A stretch of 32,000 nucleotides of DNA from Alphaproteobacteria bacterium (lineage in GTDB: Bacteria > Pseudomonadota > Alphaproteobacteria > Rs-D84), in contig JAFVFD010000002.1 in assembly GCA_017475605.1 (NCBI GenBank), forward strand, positions 120,001 through 152,000, written 5' to 3'. The notes under the pieces were generated by a model, which was not told the origin of the DNA, made no database searches, and saw only the letters and a list, made by a program, of their open reading frames with translations. Positions 1 to 32,000 of the stretch are shown here, in pieces (the first letter of the stretch is position 1; each line of letters opens with the position of its first letter). Both the position numbers and the translations under genes were made by a program.

Positions 1-892
1 TTTGCACCGCACAACCTTTACTTAAAACAACACAATCCGTACCATTTGAATTAGGCGAATACCCATCCAAACACAACAAATGTTCTTTACCAACTTTTTT
101 TAAGTGTGGAGCAGAATTATAATATTTATTACAACACGAACACCCAGTTTCTGTACTTGTATATGCCAACTTTGCCCGAACAACAACAGGAGAAACAAAT
201 GCCCCATGTCCACCAGGAGCCCATTTTGTTACTGCCAAAATCATATCGTATTCTTCTTTGTTTTTTTCTTGGTTCATATGAAACATAGGCAACAAATCTT
301 CTATGTTTTGTGCGGCTTTTGTTACCATTTTAAAACCACTGAATTGATTTTTGTTCATAGTTGTTGTGTTACAACTAGATGCTTGTGTACTATTGCGACA
401 CTCTGTCCCAGAAAAGCCATCACGACACAACCAAAAACACTTTGAACCAGAAGCCGATTCAAAATATTCAGTACGGGCTTTTTCATCAACATCCTTATGA
501 CAATTGAACCAAGCCCAATGTTGTTTATAATCATCATTACTGGCCTCTAGTTGTGTTACGCAGAATTCAGCCCCATTCGCATTCACCTTACGAGCCATTA
601 AAACTAAAATTGCACCTGCATCTGTTTTTGTACCATGCTTTTTTGACAAATCACCAATCTTGTTATTTGTCCATACACCACAATCACTGAAACTGTCCCC
701 TATACAAGCCACATCACTATTAGAATGTTCAATAGCAGTAATAGTATAATTCTTAACACCAAAAAAATCGCGAATTTCTTCACTAATTTGATTATTTGTT
801 ATTGCACCGAAAGCGACATTCAATATGAATGTGTACACAAAGGCGAAAGAAAAGCCGCCCCGTATCAATCGGCTTTTTGATTTAAATAACAT
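1..892 (-). CDS. Secreted cysteine-rich protein with EGF-like half-motifs (5' part only; continues past the left edge)
   Basis: Absent from the ORF track because it has no stop in the window. I checked the minus frame (plus-strand triplets starting at 2,5,8...) codon by codon and it is stop-free from 892 to 2. ATG at 892-890 has GGGAG ~8 nt upstream. N-terminus MLFKSKSRLIRGGFSFAFVYTFILNVAFGA/ITNN is a Sec-type signal peptide. There are 14 Cys in the 297 visible residues, including LCRDGFSGTEC and CLDGYSPNSNGTDC (C-x2-G-[FY]-x4-8-C). The start overlaps the 3' end of the upstream gene by 28 nt. Confidence 0.65.
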   Translation of the reverse strand, partial: MLFKSKSRLIRGGFSFAFVYTFILNVAFGAITNNQISEEIRDFFGVKNYTITAIEHSNSDVACIGDSFSDCGVWTNNKIGDLSKKHGTKTDAGAILVLMARKVNANGAEFCVTQLEASNDDYKQHWAWFNCHKDVDEKARTEYFESASGSKCFWLCRDGFSGTECRNSTQASSCNTTTMNKNQFSGFKMVTKAAQNIEDLLPMFHMNQEKNKEEYDMILAVTKWAPGGHGAFVSPVVVRAKLAYTSTETGCSCCNKYYNSAPHLKKVGKEHLLCLDGYSPNSNGTDCVVLSKGCAVQ

Positions 893-3174
893 GTGCCGTT
901 CTCCCAATATCCACCAATGAAGTTACATCTGTTTTCATACCATTCAGTTGTAAAATTACATTTTTCGGTTTTTTCGTCATATTTGGCATAACCTTTACCA
1001 CCAGTTGCAACATCTTGTGCCTGGCATTGCATTTCAACTGTATTTTGAATACAGATTCCCCAATTTTCGGCTTTGTCTGTGTTGCCACCATATACGTTTC
1101 TATAAAAGCTGGATACATATGGAATATTAGTGCTATGGGTAACATCCTGTGCCATAGTTTTTGCCTCGTCAACTTTTTCCAACCACACCCCATCAAGCAA
1201 CTCACACTGTGTTGCAAGTTTTTGCGCCAAATCGATTTGAATATCATCAACCAATCTGTTTATAACTGTTGTTGTTTCTGCACCGGTCATGGTTGAATTA
1301 CAATATGTTTCGGACATCTTGTTAAGATTTGTTCTAAGTTCTGCTTCACTCATCAAACGGCAATTCCATGGATAGCCAATCGTACCTGATGTTGGTGTAC
1401 ATAATTCCTTGGCATAGTTTTCCATGGCAACTTCGCAACCTTCGTTAATACGAACAGTGTCAACACTGTCCACAAACTTGGTCAACGCGGTTAAACCACA
1501 GGCAGTTGCATTTTGCAATTTTCCATCATTACCAAAGTTACAAGATTCGCCATTCCCATATAACGCGGCGCATGCCGAAACCTTGTCCATGCACATTTGC
1601 TTTGCCGCATAGGCGGAAAGGGCACCGGTCATTTGTGCGGTTGTGGTATCAAAATCTTTCAATGCGGACGATTGTGTGTCATAGCATTCAGCCATGGTGC
1701 TTACGCAACTCATTTTGACTTCTTCTATCTTTTCATCTTGTGCCTGGGCAATTTCAATTAACGCTGTGCGTTTGAATTCTTCCCATACTATTTTTTGTAT
1801 ATCACGACAAGTGTCCAACGCGGTTGTTGCGAACATTTTGCGCGATTCCAAGAATCTGTTGAATTCTGGGTTTACGCCCAAAACATCCATACTGGTGTCG
1901 GAACCCGTATAACCCGGTAATGTAATAATATCTGTTAATTGGAATAAACGTGGCGAATAAATTGGTTCGCCGGTCGACTGATTAACATATGCACCCGTAT
2001 AGTCCAGGCAACGTTTATAGTTTGCCCCACACGCTGTGTCGGCGGTAATTGCCGCACGAACCTTGGATATACATTCATTAACATCGGCACTGTTGTGGGA
2101 ACGATATTCGTCCAAACGTGCCTCGCGTAAATACTTTTCCGCAGTACGAACGGTTTGTTTTACAGCCTCGACCTTTTTATCGATATTCTTTTGATATGCG
2201 TTACAATCTTGTGTAATCAGAATACTGTACGAAGAACGCGCCATGTTCGACACAGCGGCACTTTCGCACGAAGAAGAAACAAGATTCATACACTGTTTAT
2301 TCGCGGCATTATATAAATTAACACCTTCTAATTCCGACAGGTTTTGCCCACCACCATTACCACCAAAGATTGAAGAACCACCGTCGGACCAAATGTCGTC
2401 AATGTCCCCAGAAAAATCAAGCGACAGGACACCCAACGATGTCGAACTGGTGTTCGCGGTATATGTCTTCTTTTTACCGGACAACAAATCACCAATTTCA
2501 TCCAGCATCTTGGCCGCGCCACTGGTATCGTTTTTAATTGCCGCTTCGCCAACTGTGGCGGAATACATGGCGTTAACCTCGGCTGCGGTTTTATCAACCG
2601 CATTTAAATTATTATCTTCGAACCGCATTAATAATGTTTTTGCCTGGTCCAAAGCATCTTCTGTATTGCGGAATTCGGCAAAGCGCGAACTGCAATAGCA
2701 ACGACGATATGTATCGTTTGCGTTTGCACAGAATTGATCCATACATGTCGCATATGCTTCGCGGCAATTGGCATAGCCACCACCAATTTTAGAAATATCG
2801 TTAAATACCGCGGTTGCACGCGCAACAGATGCACGCGACACATTTGGTTTTACCGCGGAACGTGCCGTTGCACCACCGGTTGCACTGCGCGCATTGGTTG
2901 CGCGAACGGTGGTCGCACTGCGCCCAACGGTTGCCGCGCCACGCATAGCATTAGACACAACCGCACCACGCGCCGATGCCCGCGCATCAGCCGCACGCGA
3001 AACCGTACGATTTGTTGTCGCACGCGAAACAGTTGCCGAATCGGTACCACGTGTATTGGTCGCCGTCATTGACGAACCACGTGGGTTGGGGGCCTGGACC
3101 GACATCGCATCAAAGCCCACAAATACGGTCGCAGCCGCAATCAAAGAACGTAAAAGATTTATCCGGTTAAACAT
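865..3174 (-). CDS. Secreted 769-aa cysteine-rich protein with a basic R/A/S/T-rich N-terminal region; no recognisable family
   Basis: Long ORF in the track. Signal peptide MFNRINLLRSLIAAATVFVGFDAMSVQA. Residues ~29-125 are low-complexity with Arg every 5-9 residues (TVSRATTNRTVSRAADARASARG...). The remaining ~640 aa are helix-like and carry 28 Cys by my count, none before residue ~137. Confidence 0.8.
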   Translation of the reverse strand: MFNRINLLRSLIAAATVFVGFDAMSVQAPNPRGSSMTATNTRGTDSATVSRATTNRTVSRAADARASARGAVVSNAMRGAATVGRSATTVRATNARSATGGATARSAVKPNVSRASVARATAVFNDISKIGGGYANCREAYATCMDQFCANANDTYRRCYCSSRFAEFRNTEDALDQAKTLLMRFEDNNLNAVDKTAAEVNAMYSATVGEAAIKNDTSGAAKMLDEIGDLLSGKKKTYTANTSSTSLGVLSLDFSGDIDDIWSDGGSSIFGGNGGGQNLSELEGVNLYNAANKQCMNLVSSSCESAAVSNMARSSYSILITQDCNAYQKNIDKKVEAVKQTVRTAEKYLREARLDEYRSHNSADVNECISKVRAAITADTACGANYKRCLDYTGAYVNQSTGEPIYSPRLFQLTDIITLPGYTGSDTSMDVLGVNPEFNRFLESRKMFATTALDTCRDIQKIVWEEFKRTALIEIAQAQDEKIEEVKMSCVSTMAECYDTQSSALKDFDTTTAQMTGALSAYAAKQMCMDKVSACAALYGNGESCNFGNDGKLQNATACGLTALTKFVDSVDTVRINEGCEVAMENYAKELCTPTSGTIGYPWNCRLMSEAELRTNLNKMSETYCNSTMTGAETTTVINRLVDDIQIDLAQKLATQCELLDGVWLEKVDEAKTMAQDVTHSTNIPYVSSFYRNVYGGNTDKAENWGICIQNTVEMQCQAQDVATGGKGYAKYDEKTEKCNFTTEWYENRCNFIGGYWENGTCYLNQKAD

Positions 3175-3231: not shown

Positions 3232-3747
3232 CTATTTTATAATGAACCAAAAAATCAGTGTAACAATCAACAATGCGCCCAATGGCCAAACAACCTTTTG
3301 AAATGGGAACCATGCGTGGCCGCCGTTTTTTGCCTTGATATTCTGATACCATTTGCCCGCCAACCAGAAAACGATTGAACCAACAATAACCCCCAGCAAG
3401 AAACTGTCCACGCCCCAAAGTGTTGTTGCGTTGAATCGCAGGGTCGGATTACCCACCGGCAAAACATATATCAGTGCCAGCAGACCATAATAAACAACAT
3501 AGTTCAACAAATATAAAAATCTGTTTTTAATTCCATGTGTCGCCATATAATTCGCCGTCCACGCAGAAAGCGACAACATCAAACCACCGGCCCAAAGCCC
3601 GGTTATAACATCGTCAACCCCCAAAACACGTGCACCTTCTAATCCGGCACCAACCGCAACCGTACACACCGGGCAAAACGCATGCGCCGCGCCAGCCATA
3701 AATACGGCTGACAAAAAACCAAACAAGCAAGACAAACCCTTTTTCAT
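3232..3747 (-). CDS. Polytopic membrane protein with a CPVC (CxxC) motif after the first hydrophobic segment
   Basis: 171-aa ORF with RBS AAAGGAAAGGAA upstream. MKKGLSCLFGFLSAVFMAGAAHA/FCPVCTVAVGAG is followed by about four more hydrophobic helices. No family recognised. Confidence 0.7.
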   Translation of the reverse strand: MKKGLSCLFGFLSAVFMAGAAHAFCPVCTVAVGAGLEGARVLGVDDVITGLWAGGLMLSLSAWTANYMATHGIKNRFLYLLNYVVYYGLLALIYVLPVGNPTLRFNATTLWGVDSFLLGVIVGSIVFWLAGKWYQNIKAKNGGHAWFPFQKVVWPLGALLIVTLIFWFIIK

Positions 3748-12375: not shown

Positions 12376-13137
12376 TTACATAACTTTACCACTGGTGGGG
12401 TAAAATGTTAATTGTATTTTTTCCCACTTGGAAAACTCATTTTCAGGCAACATTTTCAACGGTTGACAGGTATTTATTGCCGCACGTATTGTATCCAAAA
12501 CATAAGCAAATGCCGCATCAGTTTCCGCGCGCGCCGCCGATTCAAACCACACATCGCGCACCGTTCCATTTTTACGCATAGTAAGGTGTGCCACCGCACG
12601 AATATCCGAAATATCATTTCTGTTTTTATCAATTACCCAACAACGCGTCATCGCCACACGCAACGCATCAACCACCGACACATTAAGTGTGCGATTCAAT
12701 GAAACACTTTCGCGGTTAACACGAATTACCATTTTCTTCTTTGGTGCGGCTGGGACCGGATCAACCTTGATTTCTTCGGGTGTGGGTTCCGGCTTTGCAT
12801 CCGGTTTGGTTTCCGGTTCGGGTTCGGCCAGCGATGGCGATTCTATATTTTTATCGGGCGCATCGGGGGCGGGGGCAGGTTCCGGCGATTCCGTCTTTTC
12901 TGGTTTTACATCCGGTTTTGTATCTTCGATTGGGTTTGTATTATAAAGTTTTGTTTCTTCGCCCGATATCGTAACAGAATCTAAATCAATTTCTGTAATT
13001 TCAATTCTGTCCGGCGCAATTAACAACGCACGATTAACCAACACCGCAAATGACGTTACCATAACAGATATAACAATCAGATGTCCAATCAAAGACATCA
13101 GTATATTTTCCAACGAAAATTGTTTATCTGGGTTCAT
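12376..13137 (-). CDS. tolA: TolA-like cell-envelope integrity protein
   Basis: N-terminal TM anchor, a Pro/Glu/Lys-rich linker (PEPAPAPDAP...EPEPETKPDAKPEPTPEE) and a C-terminal TolA/TonB-like globular domain. Follows tolQ-tolR with a 4-nt ATGA overlap. Confidence 0.75.
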   Translation of the reverse strand: MNPDKQFSLENILMSLIGHLIVISVMVTSFAVLVNRALLIAPDRIEITEIDLDSVTISGEETKLYNTNPIEDTKPDVKPEKTESPEPAPAPDAPDKNIESPSLAEPEPETKPDAKPEPTPEEIKVDPVPAAPKKKMVIRVNRESVSLNRTLNVSVVDALRVAMTRCWVIDKNRNDISDIRAVAHLTMRKNGTVRDVWFESAARAETDAAFAYVLDTIRAAINTCQPLKMLPENEFSKWEKIQLTFYPTSGKVM

Positions 13138-16736: not shown

Positions 16737-16766
16737 TTGACATGAATACCCCATTTGTTTTAAGAT
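16737..16766 (+). promoter_or_regulatory. Candidate promoter of the 16793 secreted-protein gene
   Basis: TTGACA - 18 nt - TAAGAT, lying back-to-back with the divergent minus-strand promoter. Its position favours the ATG at 16793 over the track start at 16742. Confidence 0.35.
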
Positions 16767-16792
16767 TTATTCGAGAGATAAAAGGTTTTGCT

Positions 16793-17713
16793 ATGTCTAA
16801 ACTAGGATTTTTGGCTGTTTTCGCGGTTTTTAGCGCATTTAATGCGTTTGCAGAAGACTTCGTTGAATACGAAAACTTTCAGACTATTTACACCGAAACA
16901 CCGGTACAATCATATTACGCGTACCCAGATGATCCGAATTTCATTCCGGAAACTGAATTTATGCAACGCGCAGACAGTTTGGACTATGACCAAAACATTA
17001 TAAATGCGCGCGAAGCGGAATCTGCGGCACACCCGGGGGTTATGTTTGCCGACCGCCCAATGATAATTTGTCGTAATTTTGGTTGTACAAAGTTAAACGA
17101 CCGTATCACGCGTACATTTTTATTTAACAGTTTGGCAAATATGTTCATGATGAACAGCCATTCCCGCGTATATATTTGTGAAGCGGACCCGTTTTCACGC
17201 GACTGCCTGCAATCTGGCATTTCATTCCCTGTGCGCAGCGGTGTTGCCAATGCCCTGGTCAAGATTCCCAAGGCCACCATATCCCAGGTTACTCTTTCCA
17301 CCGGTCTTTCCAAGGCAACCGTTGGTATGACCTATGAATTGTTGGTTAACGGTGTTTCCCGCGTGTGCGAACCAACCGTTATGGACATTGTTATTCCTGT
17401 TAATTCCCAGGCAACATTATCAAACCGCGAATTTACATGTAACATGACCAGCGACGGTTTAAGCAATGTGTCCTTGTTGGTTAATATTGATTATATCGAT
17501 TTAGACTATGGCATTTTGGGTGGTTATTATTCACTTGGGATGCAGGGTCCAACCACCGGTGGTGGCACAGGATACGCGTTATTCAAAACAGAATTCACGA
17601 CACGTGGTTTACAATTCCGCGCGGCCACTGATGACGATATGATGGGCGCAAATGGCGGTAATATGTTGACTATCCAACCGGGTGAATATGCCGTTGGGCC
17701 GTTGGCAAAATAA
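16793..17713 (+). CDS. Secreted hypothetical protein (306 aa, 6 Cys)
   Basis: From ATG 16793 the protein begins MSKLGFLAVFAVFSAFNAFA/EDF, a canonical Sec signal peptide. An AAAAGG RBS lies upstream. No family recognised. Confidence 0.7.
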   Translation: MSKLGFLAVFAVFSAFNAFAEDFVEYENFQTIYTETPVQSYYAYPDDPNFIPETEFMQRADSLDYDQNIINAREAESAAHPGVMFADRPMIICRNFGCTKLNDRITRTFLFNSLANMFMMNSHSRVYICEADPFSRDCLQSGISFPVRSGVANALVKIPKATISQVTLSTGLSKATVGMTYELLVNGVSRVCEPTVMDIVIPVNSQATLSNREFTCNMTSDGLSNVSLLVNIDYIDLDYGILGGYYSLGMQGPTTGGGTGYALFKTEFTTRGLQFRAATDDDMMGANGGNMLTIQPGEYAVGPLAK

Positions 17714-25212: not shown

Positions 25213-25704
25213 ATGAAAAAACAAATAAAAGATATGACCAAGGCCGAAAAATTATCACGCATTGAACGTTTGTCTTTAAAATTTCATGATATTGAAACGA
25301 TACCGTCCGTATTGTTATCGGACGAGGCCAAACGCACACAGTCAGATAAAACAATAATTGACGCGATTAACAAATTGGAAACACTGGAAATTCAAAGCCA
25401 CCAACTAGAACAAGCCCATTCGGATGTCATGGCGCGTGATTTACGCCCATTAAAGCGTATTTATGATTACGAAACCGAAAAACTGGCCAAGAAACAAGAA
25501 TCTGAAAACCAAACATATCTTTCGCGCAGAATACCTGTTCCACAACACATTCAACAAAAACACATTAGCGAAAAGAAAGAATTGGAAACCAAACACGCAA
25601 ATCGCAAAAAAGCAGCATTGGCCCCAACAGAAACTAAACTTGCGGAATGTAAACAAAAAATATATTCGGTATTTATGGACGCAGTCCGATATCTGTACAG
25701 GTAA
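25213..25704 (+). CDS. Hypothetical charged, probably coiled-coil protein (163 aa)
   Basis: ORF from ATG 25213 (MKKQIKDMTKAEK). Rich in K/E/Q with heptad-like stretches and no signal peptide. It has its own promoter and terminator. Confidence 0.55.
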   Translation: MKKQIKDMTKAEKLSRIERLSLKFHDIETIPSVLLSDEAKRTQSDKTIIDAINKLETLEIQSHQLEQAHSDVMARDLRPLKRIYDYETEKLAKKQESENQTYLSRRIPVPQHIQQKHISEKKELETKHANRKKAALAPTETKLAECKQKIYSVFMDAVRYLYR

Positions 25705-27569: not shown

Positions 27570-27595
27570 TTTTTGCTAAAAATCGTACAAACATA

Positions 27596-27630
27596 CCGAG
27601 TCTGTTATTGACAGACTCGGTTGTTTTTTT
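27596..27630 (+). terminator. Rho-independent terminator after rpsA
   Basis: 10-bp perfect stem CCGAGTCTGT/ACAGACTCGG with loop TATTG, followed by TTGTTTTTTT. Confidence 0.8.
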
Positions 27631-27637
27631 CTAACAT
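27608..27637 (+). promoter_or_regulatory. Candidate promoter of the giant gene, embedded in the rpsA terminator
   Basis: TTGACA (terminator loop and 3' arm) - 18 nt - TAACAT. The purine-rich GAGGAAGGG follows at 27647-27655. Confidence 0.3.
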
Positions 27638-27689
27638 TCAAAGAAAGAGGAAGGGTACTATCATTCAACGACACACAATTCTTAAACGA

Positions 27690-30600
27690 ATGTTTGTGGC
27701 GACTTTGTTTGTCGTGGGGGTCTTTATTTGCCCGAATACTCCGGTGTCTGCGATTCAGCGCAATGTTCCGCAACCAACAAATACGCGTACGGTTGTTAAC
27801 AGAACATCCCCTAAAACAGTACCGGCGCGCACAACGGTATCCAGGGCTACAATAAACCAATCAACCTCATCACAGACACCTGTGAAACGCGCTGCGATAT
27901 CAACCAGCCAAAAAGCATCCCGAAATCCGATAAACGCAACAAAAACACAAAAACCAGCTGTCGAATCTGCAACACAAACTCGTACGATTGTACAAAAATC
28001 TTCTAGAAGCACGACCCGCCGTTATCAAGCAAACACTCAATCACGCACACAATCGCGCACAGCCACAATACAAAACAGAACCACACCTCCAACTAATGAC
28101 TCTACGTTGGTAAAAATGCACATTCCTGCCGATTTACGTTCAAGCCCAAACATTCAAGCATATATAACTATGTCGGGTGGGGATGATTATATTGTATTTA
28201 AATTATTCAAAAACAAATTACCCAATTTATCGACACTGTTCCAAAATCTGGGCGGAAACATGGGGGTCTTTGCCGAAAACAATACCACCAGCACCCAGAT
28301 TGTGGCAACAAACGGGACCCCGACAACGACTTCTGATCGCGAAGTTTATTTACTGAAACAACAAACAGGTGGCGGTGGTGGCGCATGTGCAAGTAATTCC
28401 GATTGTGGCGACGGAACATGTAATGCCAGTGGTATCTGCCAGTGCTTTGATAACGCATCCAAGGGGGCCAATGGCAAATGCACATGTAATTCAGGATATT
28501 ACCAGTCTGGTGGCGCATGCGTTGCGGACACATCGGGCACTGATACGAATAATTTAACATTTACAACATGCAACACCAATTCGGAATGTGCCAGTGGCCA
28601 ATGTAATTACGGCGTGTGTGTTAAGGATGACCCCAGCAGCTTTAAGTGTAACGAAGAAACAATCCAACCCGTATTCGCCATCACTGTAAAAGGAACATCG
28701 GTTTTTAATGTAAATATTCGCGCCGCAGGAACATTCTTTCTTTTTGCTCCGCACGGTGGGGTTATATCTAGTAATGGTACTACGACTTGTACGTCTAATA
28801 TTATAAAATTAGAACGCCCAACAACGGCTGGCACAGGAACGTTATCCGCCACCATTACTGATTCAGACGAATACACAACGCTGTATTTTGGTGGCATGGC
28901 GACCGAATATCCGAATAACGATACCCCAGTGATTGAATTTCAAAATACCACAGGGACATATATTGATTACAGACCATATATCTATGAAGTGTCCGGCTCG
29001 ATTGGTGCGATATTCCCCACAATTGGCGATGCGACCAGTGTCGATTACACAAAACAACCACGTTTCAAGGGGTTGTTTTCTAACGCGGTTAATCTGCGTT
29101 CTATACCGTCTGGGTTATTTGACGGCATCCATGGCCAACCGGTTGCGGATATGTTTTCTGGTGTGTTTTCTGGCTGCACCGGTTTAACCGGTTCAATTCC
29201 GGACAGATTATTTGCCGGCCTGACCGGAACGGCAGATAGCTTATTCGCGTCGACATTTTATAATTGCTCTGGGCTAACAGGTTTAATTCCCGCAAACCTG
29301 TTTGACGGTCTGACCGGCCCATACAAGCAACGTATGTTCATTAACACATTTGCTTATTGCAGTGGCCTTACTGGCAATATTCCAGATGGTTTGTTTGGTA
29401 ATTTGACTATCAATGATCCACTCGCCTATACAGCACAAACATTTAGCATGACATTTGACCGCTGCAGCGGCTTAACCGGCTATGTTCCATCCAGCATGTA
29501 TAAAGGGTTGGACGGGAAATCGGTCAATAGCACTTTTGGTACAAATGGCGATACATTTTATGGTTGCACAGGAATGGCAACATCTTGCGAAAATGGTTAT
29601 ATAAAAGATCCCGCCGCCGCAAACTATGAGCAATATTGGAGCAATCATGTCGCCTGTATCCCAGATGGCAGCAGCAGTCCCACACCGCCGGCCGCGCAAC
29701 AAACCATGACAATACCATTTTCAACGGCCGATTATGAACTGGGCAATGACACCACCGCAGATGAAGTATTTACCACAAGTTCACGCACAATTAACTTGGC
29801 ATCCGTACTAAACAATGCAACTGGTACGGTTACTGTTGACTGGGGCGACGGCACCAGTGTTGCTACAATCACCGCAGGTGATGCACTGCCATCACATACG
29901 TATACCGGCAACAGTGTATATAACATCACATTAACGGGCGACATTCCCGAAATGAAATCGACCAGCGACAATGTTGTGGCAACATGTACCGGTAATGCCG
30001 ATGAAATTCGTATCAACGAAACCCAATGCGCACGAACCAAGTTCAGAATTAACACAACGTCTGATGCCGACGAGTTTTTAATCTATATCGGTGCCGCGGG
30101 AACATTCTATATCGATTGGGATGATGGTTCCGCACCAAGTGTAATTACACATGCGACACCAATTGCGGTACCGTATTCCCATAAATATACAACGGTGCAA
30201 TCGCGAACGATTCGCATTGGCGGTTTGGCAACGGAATACCCACCATTGAATATCAACCCCGCCATATCATTTTTCTATAACAACATTTCACACCCCAATT
30301 ACATACACAGTGTTTCCGGTTCGTTGGGCGAATTGTTCCCCAGTTATGGCACTGCCGTTGGGCAAACACCACGATTTCGCAACACATTTCTGTATGCGAC
30401 TAATATGTACACAATTCCGAACACTTTATTCAGCGGGATAAGCAACGGTTCGGGAACCGTTGCGCCGATATCAAGTATGTTCGAAGGAACGTTTAAACAC
30501 TCCGGTCTGACCGAAATACCGACGGGTCTGTTTGCCGAAATTGGGGGCGCACCGGCCAACAGTATGTTTGAAGAAACGTTTTATATGGCGGAAAATCTGG

Positions 30601-32000
30601 CTGGCGAGATTCCATCGGATTTATTCGCCGGCATTCGCGGCGCACCGGCGGAACAAATGTACGAACGCACATTTGGTAGCACAAAATTAAGTGGCGAATT
30701 GCCTGATTATCTGTTTGGCAATTTGAATGGTGCGCCACAATATGCGATGTTCATGCAAACATTTGTCAACGACACGGGGCTAACGGGACAAATTCCGGAT
30801 CATTTGTTTGGCGATTTGACTGGTTCAATTGATGTTCGCTGGGCGTTTTATGAAACATTCAAGGGGTGTTCTAAACTAACCGGATATATACCATCAACAT
30901 TATTTGGCACCGTCACGGGCAATGCCGGCGATGGAACATTTAGCGACACATTCACTGGAACTGGCTTGTTGGAAAATATATGCCCCAGTAATTTTCATCC
31001 ATATCCCACCTATAACAACCGATTTGCAACATATTGGGATGGCCATATTGCATGCGAAGCCGATGATGCGATTCCTGCTGACCCGGCGCTGGGCACGTGC
31101 ACCGACGCAGAAAATGAAATTGTCGTTGGCGATGGCAAATGTGTTACATCAAAATTCATTGTCGAAACAAAATCTGTAAGTAAAGTGGTATTTTCAATCA
31201 GTGCCGCCGGTATATTCTATTACGATTGTGGCGATGGCAAAGGGGGGCATGTAATCAACCGTACCGATGACACAACACCGCGTACATATTATTGCAACTA
31301 TGACACCACCGGCAAATACACTGTCCGATTTGCCGGCACTGCAACTGGTTATTCAACCGACGAACAGACCGCCGCAATAAGCTTCAATTATAACGAATCA
31401 GATTCGTCAAAGTGCGACATCACATCAATCACAGGCTCGTTGGGTTCCGTATTTCCAAGCATTGATTCCACTGGCACTAATGGCAAGACTCCGCGTTTCA
31501 CTAACACATTCAAGTATTGTGGGCTTGACTCCATTCCCGAAAACCTGTTCAGTGGCGTAAATGGACAACCAGTATCATATATGTTCATGGGAACATTTAG
31601 CGGCGCAAAGGCAACGTCTATTCCAGCCGGATTATTCAGTGGTATAAACGGCACGCCCACACCCCACCTGTTTGAAGGCACATTCAGTGGCATGACACTG
31701 TTAAGTGGCACCATAAGCTCTGATTTATTCGCGGGAATCCGTGGCGAACCAGCACCGTATATGTTCAAATCCACGTTCCAAAATTGTTATGATAATTTTT
31801 ATAAACGGTCTTTTTCAATTGATGACGATTTATTCAGCGGAATATCTGGCGCACCCGCGACAAGCATGTTTGAAAGCACATTTGAACACACAACATTGAA
31901 CAAATTACCACCGCGCTTGTTCCGCCGTATATCCGGCGCACCGGCGACAAAAATGTTCGCACATACGTTTGATGGAACATCGCCATATGAGGGTGGTACA
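27690..32000 (+). CDS. Giant secreted modular repeat protein (at least 1,437 aa; 3' end beyond the window): signal peptide, basic leader, EGF-like Cys knots, and at least 3 super-modules of PKD-like domain + ~30-aa repeat array + Cys cap
   Basis: Absent from the ORF track because there is no stop in the window. The frame of ATG 27690 is open to 32000 (4,311 nt = 1,437 codons); I translated it fully and checked coordinates at several landmarks. MFVATLFVVGVFICPNTPVSA is a signal peptide. The true start may be non-canonical at 27663 (see findings). Confidence 0.85.
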   Translation, partial: MFVATLFVVGVFICPNTPVSAIQRNVPQPTNTRTVVNRTSPKTVPARTTVSRATINQSTSSQTPVKRAAISTSQKASRNPINATKTQKPAVESATQTRTIVQKSSRSTTRRYQANTQSRTQSRTATIQNRTTPPTNDSTLVKMHIPADLRSSPNIQAYITMSGGDDYIVFKLFKNKLPNLSTLFQNLGGNMGVFAENNTTSTQIVATNGTPTTTSDREVYLLKQQTGGGGGACASNSDCGDGTCNASGICQCFDNASKGANGKCTCNSGYYQSGGACVADTSGTDTNNLTFTTCNTNSECASGQCNYGVCVKDDPSSFKCNEETIQPVFAITVKGTSVFNVNIRAAGTFFLFAPHGGVISSNGTTTCTSNIIKLERPTTAGTGTLSATITDSDEYTTLYFGGMATEYPNNDTPVIEFQNTTGTYIDYRPYIYEVSGSIGAIFPTIGDATSVDYTKQPRFKGLFSNAVNLRSIPSGLFDGIHGQPVADMFSGVFSGCTGLTGSIPDRLFAGLTGTADSLFASTFYNCSGLTGLIPANLFDGLTGPYKQRMFINTFAYCSGLTGNIPDGLFGNLTINDPLAYTAQTFSMTFDRCSGLTGYVPSSMYKGLDGKSVNSTFGTNGDTFYGCTGMATSCENGYIKDPAAANYEQYWSNHVACIPDGSSSPTPPAAQQTMTIPFSTADYELGNDTTADEVFTTSSRTINLASVLNNATGTVTVDWGDGTSVATITAGDALPSHTYTGNSVYNITLTGDIPEMKSTSDNVVATCTGNADEIRINETQCARTKFRINTTSDADEFLIYIGAAGTFYIDWDDGSAPSVITHATPIAVPYSHKYTTVQSRTIRIGGLATEYPPLNINPAISFFYNNISHPNYIHSVSGSLGELFPSYGTAVGQTPRFRNTFLYATNMYTIPNTLFSGISNGSGTVAPISSMFEGTFKHSGLTEIPTGLFAEIGGAPANSMFEETFYMAENLAGEIPSDLFAGIRGAPAEQMYERTFGSTKLSGELPDYLFGNLNGAPQYAMFMQTFVNDTGLTGQIPDHLFGDLTGSIDVRWAFYETFKGCSKLTGYIPSTLFGTVTGNAGDGTFSDTFTGTGLLENICPSNFHPYPTYNNRFATYWDGHIACEADDAIPADPALGTCTDAENEIVVGDGKCVTSKFIVETKSVSKVVFSISAAGIFYYDCGDGKGGHVINRTDDTTPRTYYCNYDTTGKYTVRFAGTATGYSTDEQTAAISFNYNESDSSKCDITSITGSLGSVFPSIDSTGTNGKTPRFTNTFKYCGLDSIPENLFSGVNGQPVSYMFMGTFSGAKATSIPAGLFSGINGTPTPHLFEGTFSGMTLLSGTISSDLFAGIRGEPAPYMFKSTFQNCYDNFYKRSFSIDDDLFSGISGAPATSMFESTFEHTTLNKLPPRLFRRISGAPATKMFAHTFDGTSPYEGGT
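29055..29534 (+). repeat. Array 1 of ~30-aa coding repeats (5 units) inside the giant gene
   Basis: QPRFKGLFSNAVNLRSIPSGLFDGIHGQPVAD / MFSGVFSGCTGLTGSIPDRLFAGLTGTADS / LFASTFYNCSGLTGLIPANLFDGLTGPYKQR / MFINTFAYCSGLTGNIPDGLFGNL... / FSMTFDRCSGLTGYVPSSMYKGLDG... Confidence 0.8.
30366..30938 (+). repeat. Array 2 of ~30-aa coding repeats (6 units)
   Basis: TPRFRNTFLYATNMYTIPNTLFSGISNG... / MFEGTFKHSGLTEIPTGLFAEIGGAPANS / MFEETFYMAENLAGEIPSDLFAGIRGAPAEQ / MYERTFGSTKLSGELPDYLFGNLNGAPQYA / MFMQTFVNDTGLTGQIPDHLFGDLTG... / FYETFKGCSKLTGYIPSTLFGTVTG... Confidence 0.8.
31488..32000 (+). repeat. Array 3 of ~30-aa coding repeats (at least 6 units, truncated by the window edge)
   Basis: TPRFTNTFKYCGLDSIPENLFSGVNGQPVSY / MFMGTFSGAKATSIPAGLFSGINGTPTPH / LFEGTFSGMTLLSGTISSDLFAGIRGEPAPY / MFKSTFQNC...DDDLFSGISGAPATS / MFESTFEHTTLNKLPPRLFRRISGAPATK / MFAHTFDG... 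Confidence 0.8.

Follow-up and report, generated by a model that had tools for sequence, protein, structure and literature searches.

Several groups of bacterial surface protein bear on the gene described here. BspA of Tannerella forsythia and LrrA of Treponema denticola are examples of the BspA-type, or TpLRR, class of leucine-rich repeat (LRR) proteins. The internalins of Listeria are secreted proteins in which an LRR solenoid is combined with an Ig-like domain for host-cell binding; they have one LRR tract with a 22-residue period, followed by the Ig-like domain, and are anchored through LPXTG or GW elements. The RTX adhesins LapA, SiiE and MpIBP are made without a Sec signal peptide and carry BIg repeats and a C-terminal RTX/type I secretion system (T1SS) signal. 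Here we describe a giant gene that follows rpsA at the right-hand end of a 32,000-nucleotide stretch of alphaproteobacterial DNA (contig JAFVFD010000002.1 of assembly GCA_017475605.1, positions 120,001 to 152,000; hereafter the window) and continues beyond it. Its product, the giant protein, is a new long-period, PKD-headed variant among the known bacterial LRR (BspA-like) surface proteins, and is probably an exported binding protein. A further point of comparison is the PARCEL group (DUF285, TIGR02167), surface (lipo)proteins of Mollicutes and other organisms with a 26-residue repeat; the motif is WDxSxVTxMxxMFxxAxxFNQDIS, the period is 25-26 residues and the coding DNA is palindromic (Roske et al. 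2010, PMC2996958).

Results

A single open reading frame of 2,825 codons

From the ATG at position 27690 the forward frame runs to the edge of the window, base 32000, through 1,437 codons and no stop, as an earlier note made from the sequence had stated. Given the base composition of the window, a stretch of this length would stay open by chance with a probability of about 4e-36. The gene was extended beyond the window on ENA entry ERZ28654170 (XIEF21-1_SAMN15829995 scaffold_93), a 217-kb metagenome scaffold from ruminant gut that is identical to the window across the overlap; on this scaffold, L004, the coordinate is the window coordinate minus 15775. The full gene occupies L004 11915-20392, that is, 2,825 codons or about 8.5 kb. 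The true 3' end, which the earlier note had wished to see, lies 15 nt ahead of adk, and corA comes next on the opposite strand.

The single stop in frame +0 of the full gene is the terminal one, and the other five frames have 81-181 stops each. The repeat described below is encoded in frame +0 only (hmmsearch E = 1.5e-211, against E >= 0.15 in all other frames), and the correlation of codon usage with that of the housekeeping genes of the window peaks in the same frame, at 0.62. Because only this frame is open, encodes the repeat and best fits the codon usage, the short minus-strand open reading frames in the region are antisense artefacts, the view already taken of them. The GC content of the gene equals that of its flanks and is flat across the window. 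A hypothetical protein in GenBank from a metagenome-assembled genome (MAG), MBR2285973.1, has the same sequence and differs only in its called start, GTG 27696. It belongs to a 90%-identity cluster whose representative, P0041, is again the same protein apart from the called start, and the 2,825-amino acid (aa) product is recorded on two contigs, the longest of 696 kb.

The protein is built of five composite modules

Hidden Markov models (HMMs) built in this analysis gave the layout of the full protein: five super-modules with 3 to about 20 repeats each, plus an orphan head and a unique region (Table 1). The HMMs confirmed that the window itself holds at least three super-modules, with a PKD-like domain standing alone between the first two, as had been read from the letters. 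The head of a module has a two-Cys N-cap, is about 115 aa long and carries the motif GTFY(V/I)DWGDG...HxY...IRFGG.ATGY. The repeats, of 29-32 aa, follow the pattern I-P-x-x-L-F-x-G-I-x-G-x-P-x-x-x-M-F-x-x-T-F-x-G-C-x-G-L-T-G-x, in which I1, P2, L5, F6, I9, M17, F18, T21, F22, C25 and L28 are near-invariant and positions 3, 4, 7, 12, 14-16, 19, 20 and 23 are free. The cap, C(P)...YW.GH(V/I).C, contains two Cys. The nearest relative of the orphan head is the head of M2 (45% identity), and the head of M3 is orthologous to heads in the related proteins P0002, P0004 and P0001 (42-54% identity).

A tandem array at the DNA level was found only in M5 (L004 19631-20059, window-equivalent 35406-35834). 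There, a 96-nt (32-aa) unit is present in about 3-4 copies that match at 67-83% and encode ITSIPxxLFSTIxTSSATNTSxMFxxTFNNTN units; this array could be a site of repeat-number variation. The 179 related proteins contained no homologue of the unique region between M4 and M5 outside its own cluster, and neither Pfam nor the PDB gave a match to it. By eye, one part of this region (YLFKIKFQDQNG...GYTHRWRY) resembles a degenerate Flg_new / InlB B-repeat.

The repeats are of the LRR type

An alignment of 18 module sequences (A1) served both as a profile against PDB sequences and as the input for AlphaFold2 (AF2). The AF2 model of M2 obtained with A1 (predicted local distance difference test score, pLDDT, 92.6; predicted template modelling score, pTM, 0.91) has a beta-sandwich head, a repeat region with short periodic beta bridges and a cap with one helix. 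The A1 profile matched the LRRTM consensus design 5a5c (E = 9.9e-11), the designed protein OR464 (4psj; E = 1.1e-9), in an alignment that shows a repeating LxxLPxGLF motif, and the variable lymphocyte receptors (VLRs) of the lamprey, of which the best was 2o6s (E = 3e-8). It also matched 4gt6 (3.8e-6) and 4fs7 (1.4e-4), chains labelled only 'Cell surface protein' and 'Uncharacterized protein', respectively, and which we take to be BspA-type. The matches to 5a5c, 4psj, 2o6s and 4gt6 were always over profile positions ~131-289, the repeat tract.

The Pfam model LRR_5 (PF13306, cutoff 27.7 bits) gave no match, even at E <= 10, to the 1,437-aa sequence, the 2,825-aa sequence or M2. It is passed, however, by residues 942-1074 of the homologue P0007 (42.2 bits, E = 9.4e-11), and the same repeats of P0007 align to those of the giant protein. 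Likewise, the NCBIfam model TIGR02167 ("PARCEL repeat-containing surface protein", cutoff 30 bits) is passed by P0007 (111 bits), P0003 and P0176, and found no match in the giant protein even at E <= 10. We assign the repeats to the LRR superfamily, because the module profile matches solved LRR proteins and a relative passes LRR_5; judged by their sequence, they are nearest to the BspA/TpLRR class, with Cys for the ladder Asn, and form a distinct long-period variant with an extra GIxGxPxxx segment. The LRR-like character claimed for them earlier was right.

The evidence for PKD-like heads (PF00801 / PF18911) is divided between the giant protein and its relatives. In the giant protein, PKD_4 matches residues 710-749 at 16.3 bits (E = 0.01), below its cutoff of 27, and E values for PKD_4 range from 0.01 to 0.04. 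The heads of relatives pass the Pfam PKD model (P0007 at 31.4 bits against a cutoff of 23.5), and several homologues carry PKD and PKD_4 matches. The head profile matched the PKD domain of 4xed at E = 0.012, and a faint sub-threshold match to the Ig-like part of PamR was found in the curated libraries. The earlier PKD-like label therefore holds for heads in relatives and stays below threshold in this protein. The statement that no family covers the whole architecture was correct, in that no curated model covers the protein.

A fixed locus and a fast-evolving gene

The genes of the window are housekeeping genes throughout (rsmH, dnaE, secA, ruvB, a two-component pair, argS, rplM, rpsI, tig, thyA and rpsA). 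No second member of the module family was found in the window, and no mobile-element genes were found near the giant gene. Four genomes, those of the window and of the loci L005, L006 and L062, have rpsA, the giant gene and adk in this order; the orthologues at L005, L006 and L062 are P0001 (2,349 aa), P0004 (1,264 aa) and P0109 (925 aa), respectively. Identity to the window copy is 96-97% for RpsA, 94% for RplM, 92% for RpsI and 91% for both Adk and Tig; for the giant protein it is about 41% over alignable columns, with lengths of 925-2,825 aa and 2 to 5 modules. The giant gene is the fastest-evolving large gene of the neighbourhood. The suggestion that this is a core-genome locus thus stands as to gene order and the lack of mobile elements; it does not extend to the sequence and length of the gene itself.

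A head resembles heads of other genomes more closely than the other heads of its own genome, and clear orthologues (50-58% identity) exist for the long and the terminal module. The modules are therefore old, and have been gained and lost rather than recently amplified. A conserved stalk whose distal modules vary and diverge fast, encoded at a fixed locus, is what an exposed interaction protein under diversifying selection might look like.

A small open reading frame between thyA and rpsA, orf163 (25213-25704, +; 163 aa), is syntenic and 30% identical to its counterpart in L005, and has no Pfam match. It is a second fast-evolving gene at the locus, and has diverged further than the giant protein. 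Conservation is also clearly lower for ThyA (66%) and ArgS (70%) than for Tig and the ribosomal proteins. Small inserted genes with no Pfam match set the orthologous loci apart: one of 129 aa between rpsA and the giant gene (L062 1927-2316, -), one of 135 aa between the giant gene and adk (L005 15087-15494, -), and two between adk and corA (L005 16275-18331, +). Four open reading frames of the window have no Pfam match at E <= 1e-3: 865-3174 (-; 769 aa), 3232-3747 (-; 171 aa), 12376-13137 (-; 253 aa) and 16742-17713 (+; 323 aa).

The N-terminal part is shared by the orthologues

The N-terminal segments listed in the earlier note are all present: a hydrophobic start, a basic region put at about 115 aa (114 by our count), a segment of about 92 aa, a GGGGG stretch and a Cys block. 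The signal peptide was assessed manually. An h-region and a VSA site are present, and a basic n-region is available only if the upstream residues IIQRHTILKR (see below) are translated; cleavage by signal peptidase would follow the VSA. The orthologues have an h-region of 13-15 residues, then an AxA-like site, and no conserved Cys. No lipobox of the form [LVI][ASTVI][GAS]C is present: the sole Cys is in VFIC, with I at -1, and is missing from the signal peptides of the orthologues.

The linker (T25 R14 S14 Q12, with one acidic residue) is conserved in the orthologues in composition and not in sequence. Among 179 proteins checked, the small N-terminal domain occurs only in this protein (as P0041), P0001, P0002, P0004 and P0109; it gave no Pfam match, no PDB sequence match and nothing in a word-index homology search. 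Its AF2 model, from a four-sequence alignment, is unreliable (pLDDT 56.5) and too poor for a fold search. In the Cys-rich block, EGF_2 (PF07974) matches residues 227-320 at 18.1 bits (E = 0.0036), below the gathering cutoff of 22.1. The EGF-like label given to it earlier thus has a sub-threshold match behind it and does not reach a family assignment. The Cys block recurs at residues 1883-1927 and in the orthologues. Every orthologue has a signal peptide, a basic linker (alike in composition and not in sequence), the small domain and the first of the Cys blocks.

A conserved promoter-like element and a probable non-AUG start

Between rpsA and the giant gene, a terminator and a promoter-like element overlap: the -35 TTGACA (27608-27613) falls within the rpsA terminator, partly in its loop and partly in the descending stem. 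The terminator hairpin is kept in L005 and L006. A TTGACA with TAnnnT 17-18 nt downstream is invariant at all four orthologous loci, including L062, where a gene is inserted after rpsA, and this element may well serve as the promoter of the giant gene. At L062 the descending half of the hairpin is retained, although rpsA there has a separate terminator of its own.

The region downstream was compared over 27644-27696 of the window, L005 8030-8085, L006 1150-1207 and L062 2470-2503. The GAAGG core of a Shine-Dalgarno-like sequence is invariant in the four loci, 4-8 nt ahead of conserved AT(C/A)-ATT codons. A leader peptide, II-Q-[RK]-[HR]-[TM]-IL-[KR]-[RL], is kept upstream of every called start in the four genomes, and its differences are third-position changes (CGA/CGG, ACA/ACG, ATC/ATA) or exchanges of K and R. 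At L006 an in-frame TGA lies directly upstream, with no ATG, GTG or TTG ahead of the conserved leader peptide. The position that corresponds to 27690 in L005 holds no ATG, and the annotated ATG of this locus falls within the rpsA terminator. Gene callers differ on the start in the window, ENA giving ATG 27690 and GenBank GTG 27696. Judged by this pattern of conservation, the true start is probably the ATT at 27663 or the ATC at 27660, and the ATG at 27690, from which the earlier note had the protein begin, is probably internal. With such an upstream start, the signal peptide would have the usual basic n-region, (M)IQRHTILKR. Alternatively, the conserved stretch is an untranslated leader. If real, the conserved arrangement of Shine-Dalgarno sequence and ATT would be a case of natural non-AUG initiation on a very highly invested gene.

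The module belongs to a very large family

A word-index search returned 24 homologues, the best of them hypothetical proteins of MAGs of rumen Alphaproteobacteria. An exhaustive search with the module profile returned 15,579 cluster representatives at E <= 1e-3, of which 2,253 also pass E <= 1e-30. The proteins found are up to 7,626 aa long, with up to 25 matched module-profile stretches in one protein, and named relatives include an "InlB B-repeat-containing protein" (6,326 aa) and a "BspA family leucine-rich repeat surface protein" (3,954 aa). The module is thus a very large family (at least 15,000 clusters) without a dedicated model. The novelty attributed to the protein in the earlier note was overstated: the identical protein was already on record as MBR2285973.1, the module recurs in at least 15,579 cluster representatives and some relatives are named as BspA-family LRR surface proteins. 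A dedicated Pfam or NCBIfam model would make thousands of "hypothetical proteins" recognisable as LRR surface proteins.

The head motif G[TI]FYVDWG was found at 55 loci in the genomes of GTDB species, 54 of them in uncultured proteobacterial MAGs. These loci are mostly labelled Alphaproteobacteria or Candidatus Enterousia and come mostly from animal guts (rumen, colon and faeces of ruminants and horses); several genomes have more than one. Genomes of Candidatus Enterousia and the order Rs-D84 are smaller than 1 Mb and are without respiration or standard transporters, and for these organisms an obligate life on other cells, as symbionts or parasites, has been proposed (PMC12306168).

Relatives carry other domains at their ends. 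A helical-looking N-terminal domain (PAVNVKYIHGAI...NMRYLL..D.AN) was seen in P0003, P0005, P0006, P0010, P0011 and P0013. P0008, P0009, P0015-P0017, P0019 and P0020 carry at the C-terminus a domain some 60-90 aa long that reads roughly C(Y/L)...(Y/F)(Y/H)(L/A)... but has no single consensus. These alternative end domains could be anchoring or export domains.

Table 1. Features of the giant gene and its upstream region. Positions are those of the window unless marked L004; aa, residues counted from the called ATG.
Feature	Position	Strand	Remarks
rpsA intrinsic terminator	27595..27631	+	12-bp stem, loop TTATTGACA, then T-run; hairpin at 27595-27621
Sigma-70-like promoter, candidate for the giant gene	27608..27637	+	-35 TTGACA (perfect), 18-nt spacer, -10 TAACAT; 10/12 matches
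Shine-Dalgarno-like sequence AAGAGGAAGGG	27644..27654	+	read from sequence; 5-8 nt before ATC ATT
In-frame leader, ATC ATT CAA CGA CAC ACA ATT CTT AAA CGA (I-I-Q-R-H-T-I-L-K-R)	27660..27689	+	conserved, probably translated
Called ATG and h- and c-regions of signal peptide, MFVATLFVVGVFICPNTPVSA	27690..27752 (aa 1-21)	+	predicted cleavage after VSA
Basic T/R/S/Q-rich low-complexity linker	27753..28094 (aa 22-135)	+	net charge +19
Small conserved N-terminal domain	28095..28370 (aa 136-227)	+	syntenic orthologues only
Gly5 stretch (aa 227-231) and Cys-rich EGF-like block (aa 233-320)	28368..28649	+	repeated CxxxSDCGxGTC motifs
Super-module M1	28617..29669 (aa 310-660)	+	degenerate PKD-like head aa 313-444, ~6 LRR-type units, Cys cap ...YWSNHVAC
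Orphan PKD-like head	29721..29984 (aa 678-765)	+	WGDG motif, without LRR tract; head HMM E = 9e-13
Super-module M2	29985..31067 (aa 766-1126)	+	Cys-Cys N-cap and PKD-like head aa 766-885
M2, LRR-type units	aa 891-1075	+	7 units
M2, Cys-Cys C-cap	aa 1076-1126	+	
Super-module M3, start	31098..32000	+	head aa 1137-1257 and first repeats; continues past window
Super-module M3, whole	aa 1137-1885	+	~17-20 units
Further short Cys-rich block	aa 1883-1927	+	
Module M4	aa 1909-2145	+	3 repeats
Unique Cys- and Tyr-rich region, ~280 aa, between M4 and M5	L004 18350-19198 (aa 2146-2428)	+	beyond window
Module M5	aa 2426-2825	+	8 repeats; protein ends ...VVCEPN-stop

Discussion

A proposed surface-exposed or released binding protein

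We put at roughly 0.6 the probability that the giant gene encodes a Sec-exported, surface-exposed or released multi-LRR binding protein of an adhesin- or recognition-like kind. In this model, the gene would be transcribed from its own sigma-70-type promoter, overlapping the rpsA terminator, and the N-terminal part of the product (signal peptide, cationic and presumably disordered T/R-rich linker, small domain, Gly5 and a disulphide-rich EGF-like block) would act as a stalk or tether. The stalk would carry five mutually divergent modules that act as independent binding units, each with a PKD-like head of Ig fold, a long-period LRR solenoid with Cys in place of the Asn ladder (FxGCxGL) and a two-Cys cap. 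The conserved hydrophobic positions of the repeats would build the core and the variable positions would form ligand-binding surfaces. The protein, on the cell surface or released from it, would bind ligands on partner cells, the host or particles, and its specificity would be diversified by gain, loss and rapid divergence of modules at a fixed locus. Surface location, disulphides and a binding function are predictions from the sequence, as are cleavage of the signal peptide, promoter activity and the non-ATG start.

Several results count against this proposal. The most serious is that no device was found that would carry a 2,825-aa protein across the outer membrane of a diderm envelope or anchor it there. 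The protein ends in ...VVCEPN directly after a module cap, with no C-terminal sorting signal; Pfam, NCBIfam and the C-terminus itself gave no autotransporter barrel, RTX/T1SS signal, type IX secretion system C-terminal domain or LPXTG motif, and no lipobox is present. The beta-barrel or secretion signal that the earlier note had suggested looking for at the true 3' end is thus absent from it. Foldseek found no significant match of the module in the PDB (best E = 0.1), and Pfam and NCBIfam searches of the whole protein and of its separate segments gave nothing above cutoff, so that no curated LRR, PKD or EGF model is passed.

An 8.5-kb gene takes up about 1% of a genome of about 1 Mb, and some members of the family reach 6,000-7,600 aa. 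Its size, and a rate of divergence well above that of the housekeeping genes beside it, make the giant gene a leading candidate for an attachment or specificity determinant. A bolder proposal is that the composite module is an undescribed domain family and the main cell-to-cell attachment apparatus of genome-reduced, partner-dependent gut Alphaproteobacteria (Rs-D84/Enterousia-like), with this gene as its hypervariable flagship at a conserved locus, exported without a known C-terminal signal and started from AUU or AUC. We regard this as speculative, and doubtful in its entirety.

Other readings of the gene

The protein could instead serve as structural material of the envelope or coat, for example as a scaffold or spacer akin to an S-layer or a capsule, in which the LRR modules are only rigid building blocks. 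Within a lineage, however, structural coat proteins usually differ little in length, and the orthologues here range from 925 to 2,825 aa and are about 41% identical, against more than 90% for neighbours. Moreover, repeats that vary at set positions, as these do, are typical of binding surfaces, and no S-layer or S-layer homology (SLH) signatures were found in Pfam or NCBIfam. The very large size, the housekeeping locus with a strong promoter-like element of its own, the conserved N-terminal stalk and the many paralogues in the encoding genomes would all suit a coat protein, a role that we nevertheless consider unlikely.

Somewhat less likely again is a secreted effector or toxin-delivery protein whose LRR modules target a recipient and whose cargo is either the Cys-rich blocks or the unique region (aa 2146-2428). 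In favour of this, the organism may live in dependence on partner cells, and polymorphic cargo is commonly like the unique region, without homologues among the 179 proteins or matches in Pfam or the PDB. That region lies inside the protein, however, and not at its C-terminus, with a further module after it, and the orthologues are wholly without it although their locus and N-terminal part are conserved. Pfam and NCBIfam showed no signature of a toxin, peptidase, nuclease or immunity gene, and the next gene is adk.

A third reading, in which the gene is a PARCEL-type element, with a palindromic and amphipathic repeat-coding sequence, spread by horizontal transfer and intragenomic shuffling rather than inherited vertically, draws on the relatives that exceed the TIGR02167 cutoff and on the patchy and massively expanded distribution of the family. 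For this gene it is very improbable. The giant protein has no TIGR02167 match even at E <= 10, and its repeat period is 29-32 aa and not 25-26 (PMC2996958). The reverse-strand frames do not encode the repeat, and there is therefore no coding dyad symmetry. In four genomes the gene occupies the same place, between rpsA and adk, mobile-element genes are missing from its surroundings, and the GC content is that of the flanks. On period, dyad symmetry, TIGR02167 and the fixed locus, we largely reject it.

An artefact of assembly or annotation, or a decaying, unexpressed pseudogene, is scarcely credible even for a repeat-rich gene, of a kind prone to mis-assembly, from a metagenome assembly, since the same product is found on two contigs and, apart from the called start, in the MAG entry MBR2285973.1, the 8.5 kb have no internal stop, the repeats have diverged at the DNA level save for the one 96-nt array, and the promoter, Shine-Dalgarno sequence and leader are conserved.

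Comparison with known surface proteins

We return to the binding protein proposed above and to how it compares with described systems. With the RTX adhesins it shares the organisation of a modular surface protein of several thousand residues, with an N-terminal retention part and distal ligand-binding modules; it differs from them in that no RTX repeats or T1SS signal were seen. With the internalins it shares the combination of LRR and Ig-like parts, and InlB B-repeat / Flg_new domains occur in some of the proteins that share its module. Unlike the internalins, however, it does not have the Ig-like domain after the LRRs, a single tract, a 22-residue period or LPXTG/GW anchoring.

The likeness to PARCEL proteins lies in tandem repeats of variable number with conserved hydrophobic and variable polar positions, in the half-motif xMFxxxxxF, and in the setting, that of membrane-targeted proteins of host-associated microbes with reduced genomes. 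Motif and period are different, in contrast, and the giant gene has no coding dyad symmetry and sits at a fixed locus without mobile elements. The best matches among solved structures are to cysteine-capped LRR ectodomains (lamprey VLRs, LRRTM and repebodies): LxxIPxxLFxxI aligns with LxSLPxGVFDxLxxL, caps that contain Cys bracket the tract, and diversity is placed at surface positions. The VLR/LRRTM-type proteins are eukaryotic, however, with a single tract, a 24-residue period and an Asn ladder, and the likeness is at the level of the superfamily only.

The BspA-type proteins are likewise signal-peptide-bearing bacterial proteins of tandem LRR-type units, in which Cys replaces the ladder Asn (AFxxCxxL there, TFxGCxGL here) and I-P follows a few residues later. 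The giant protein differs from them in its period, 29-32 aa against about 23-25, which is longer because of the inserted GIxGxPxxx segment. It differs also in the fusion of a PKD-like head before each tract and a two-Cys cap after it, a composite module that is repeated five times.

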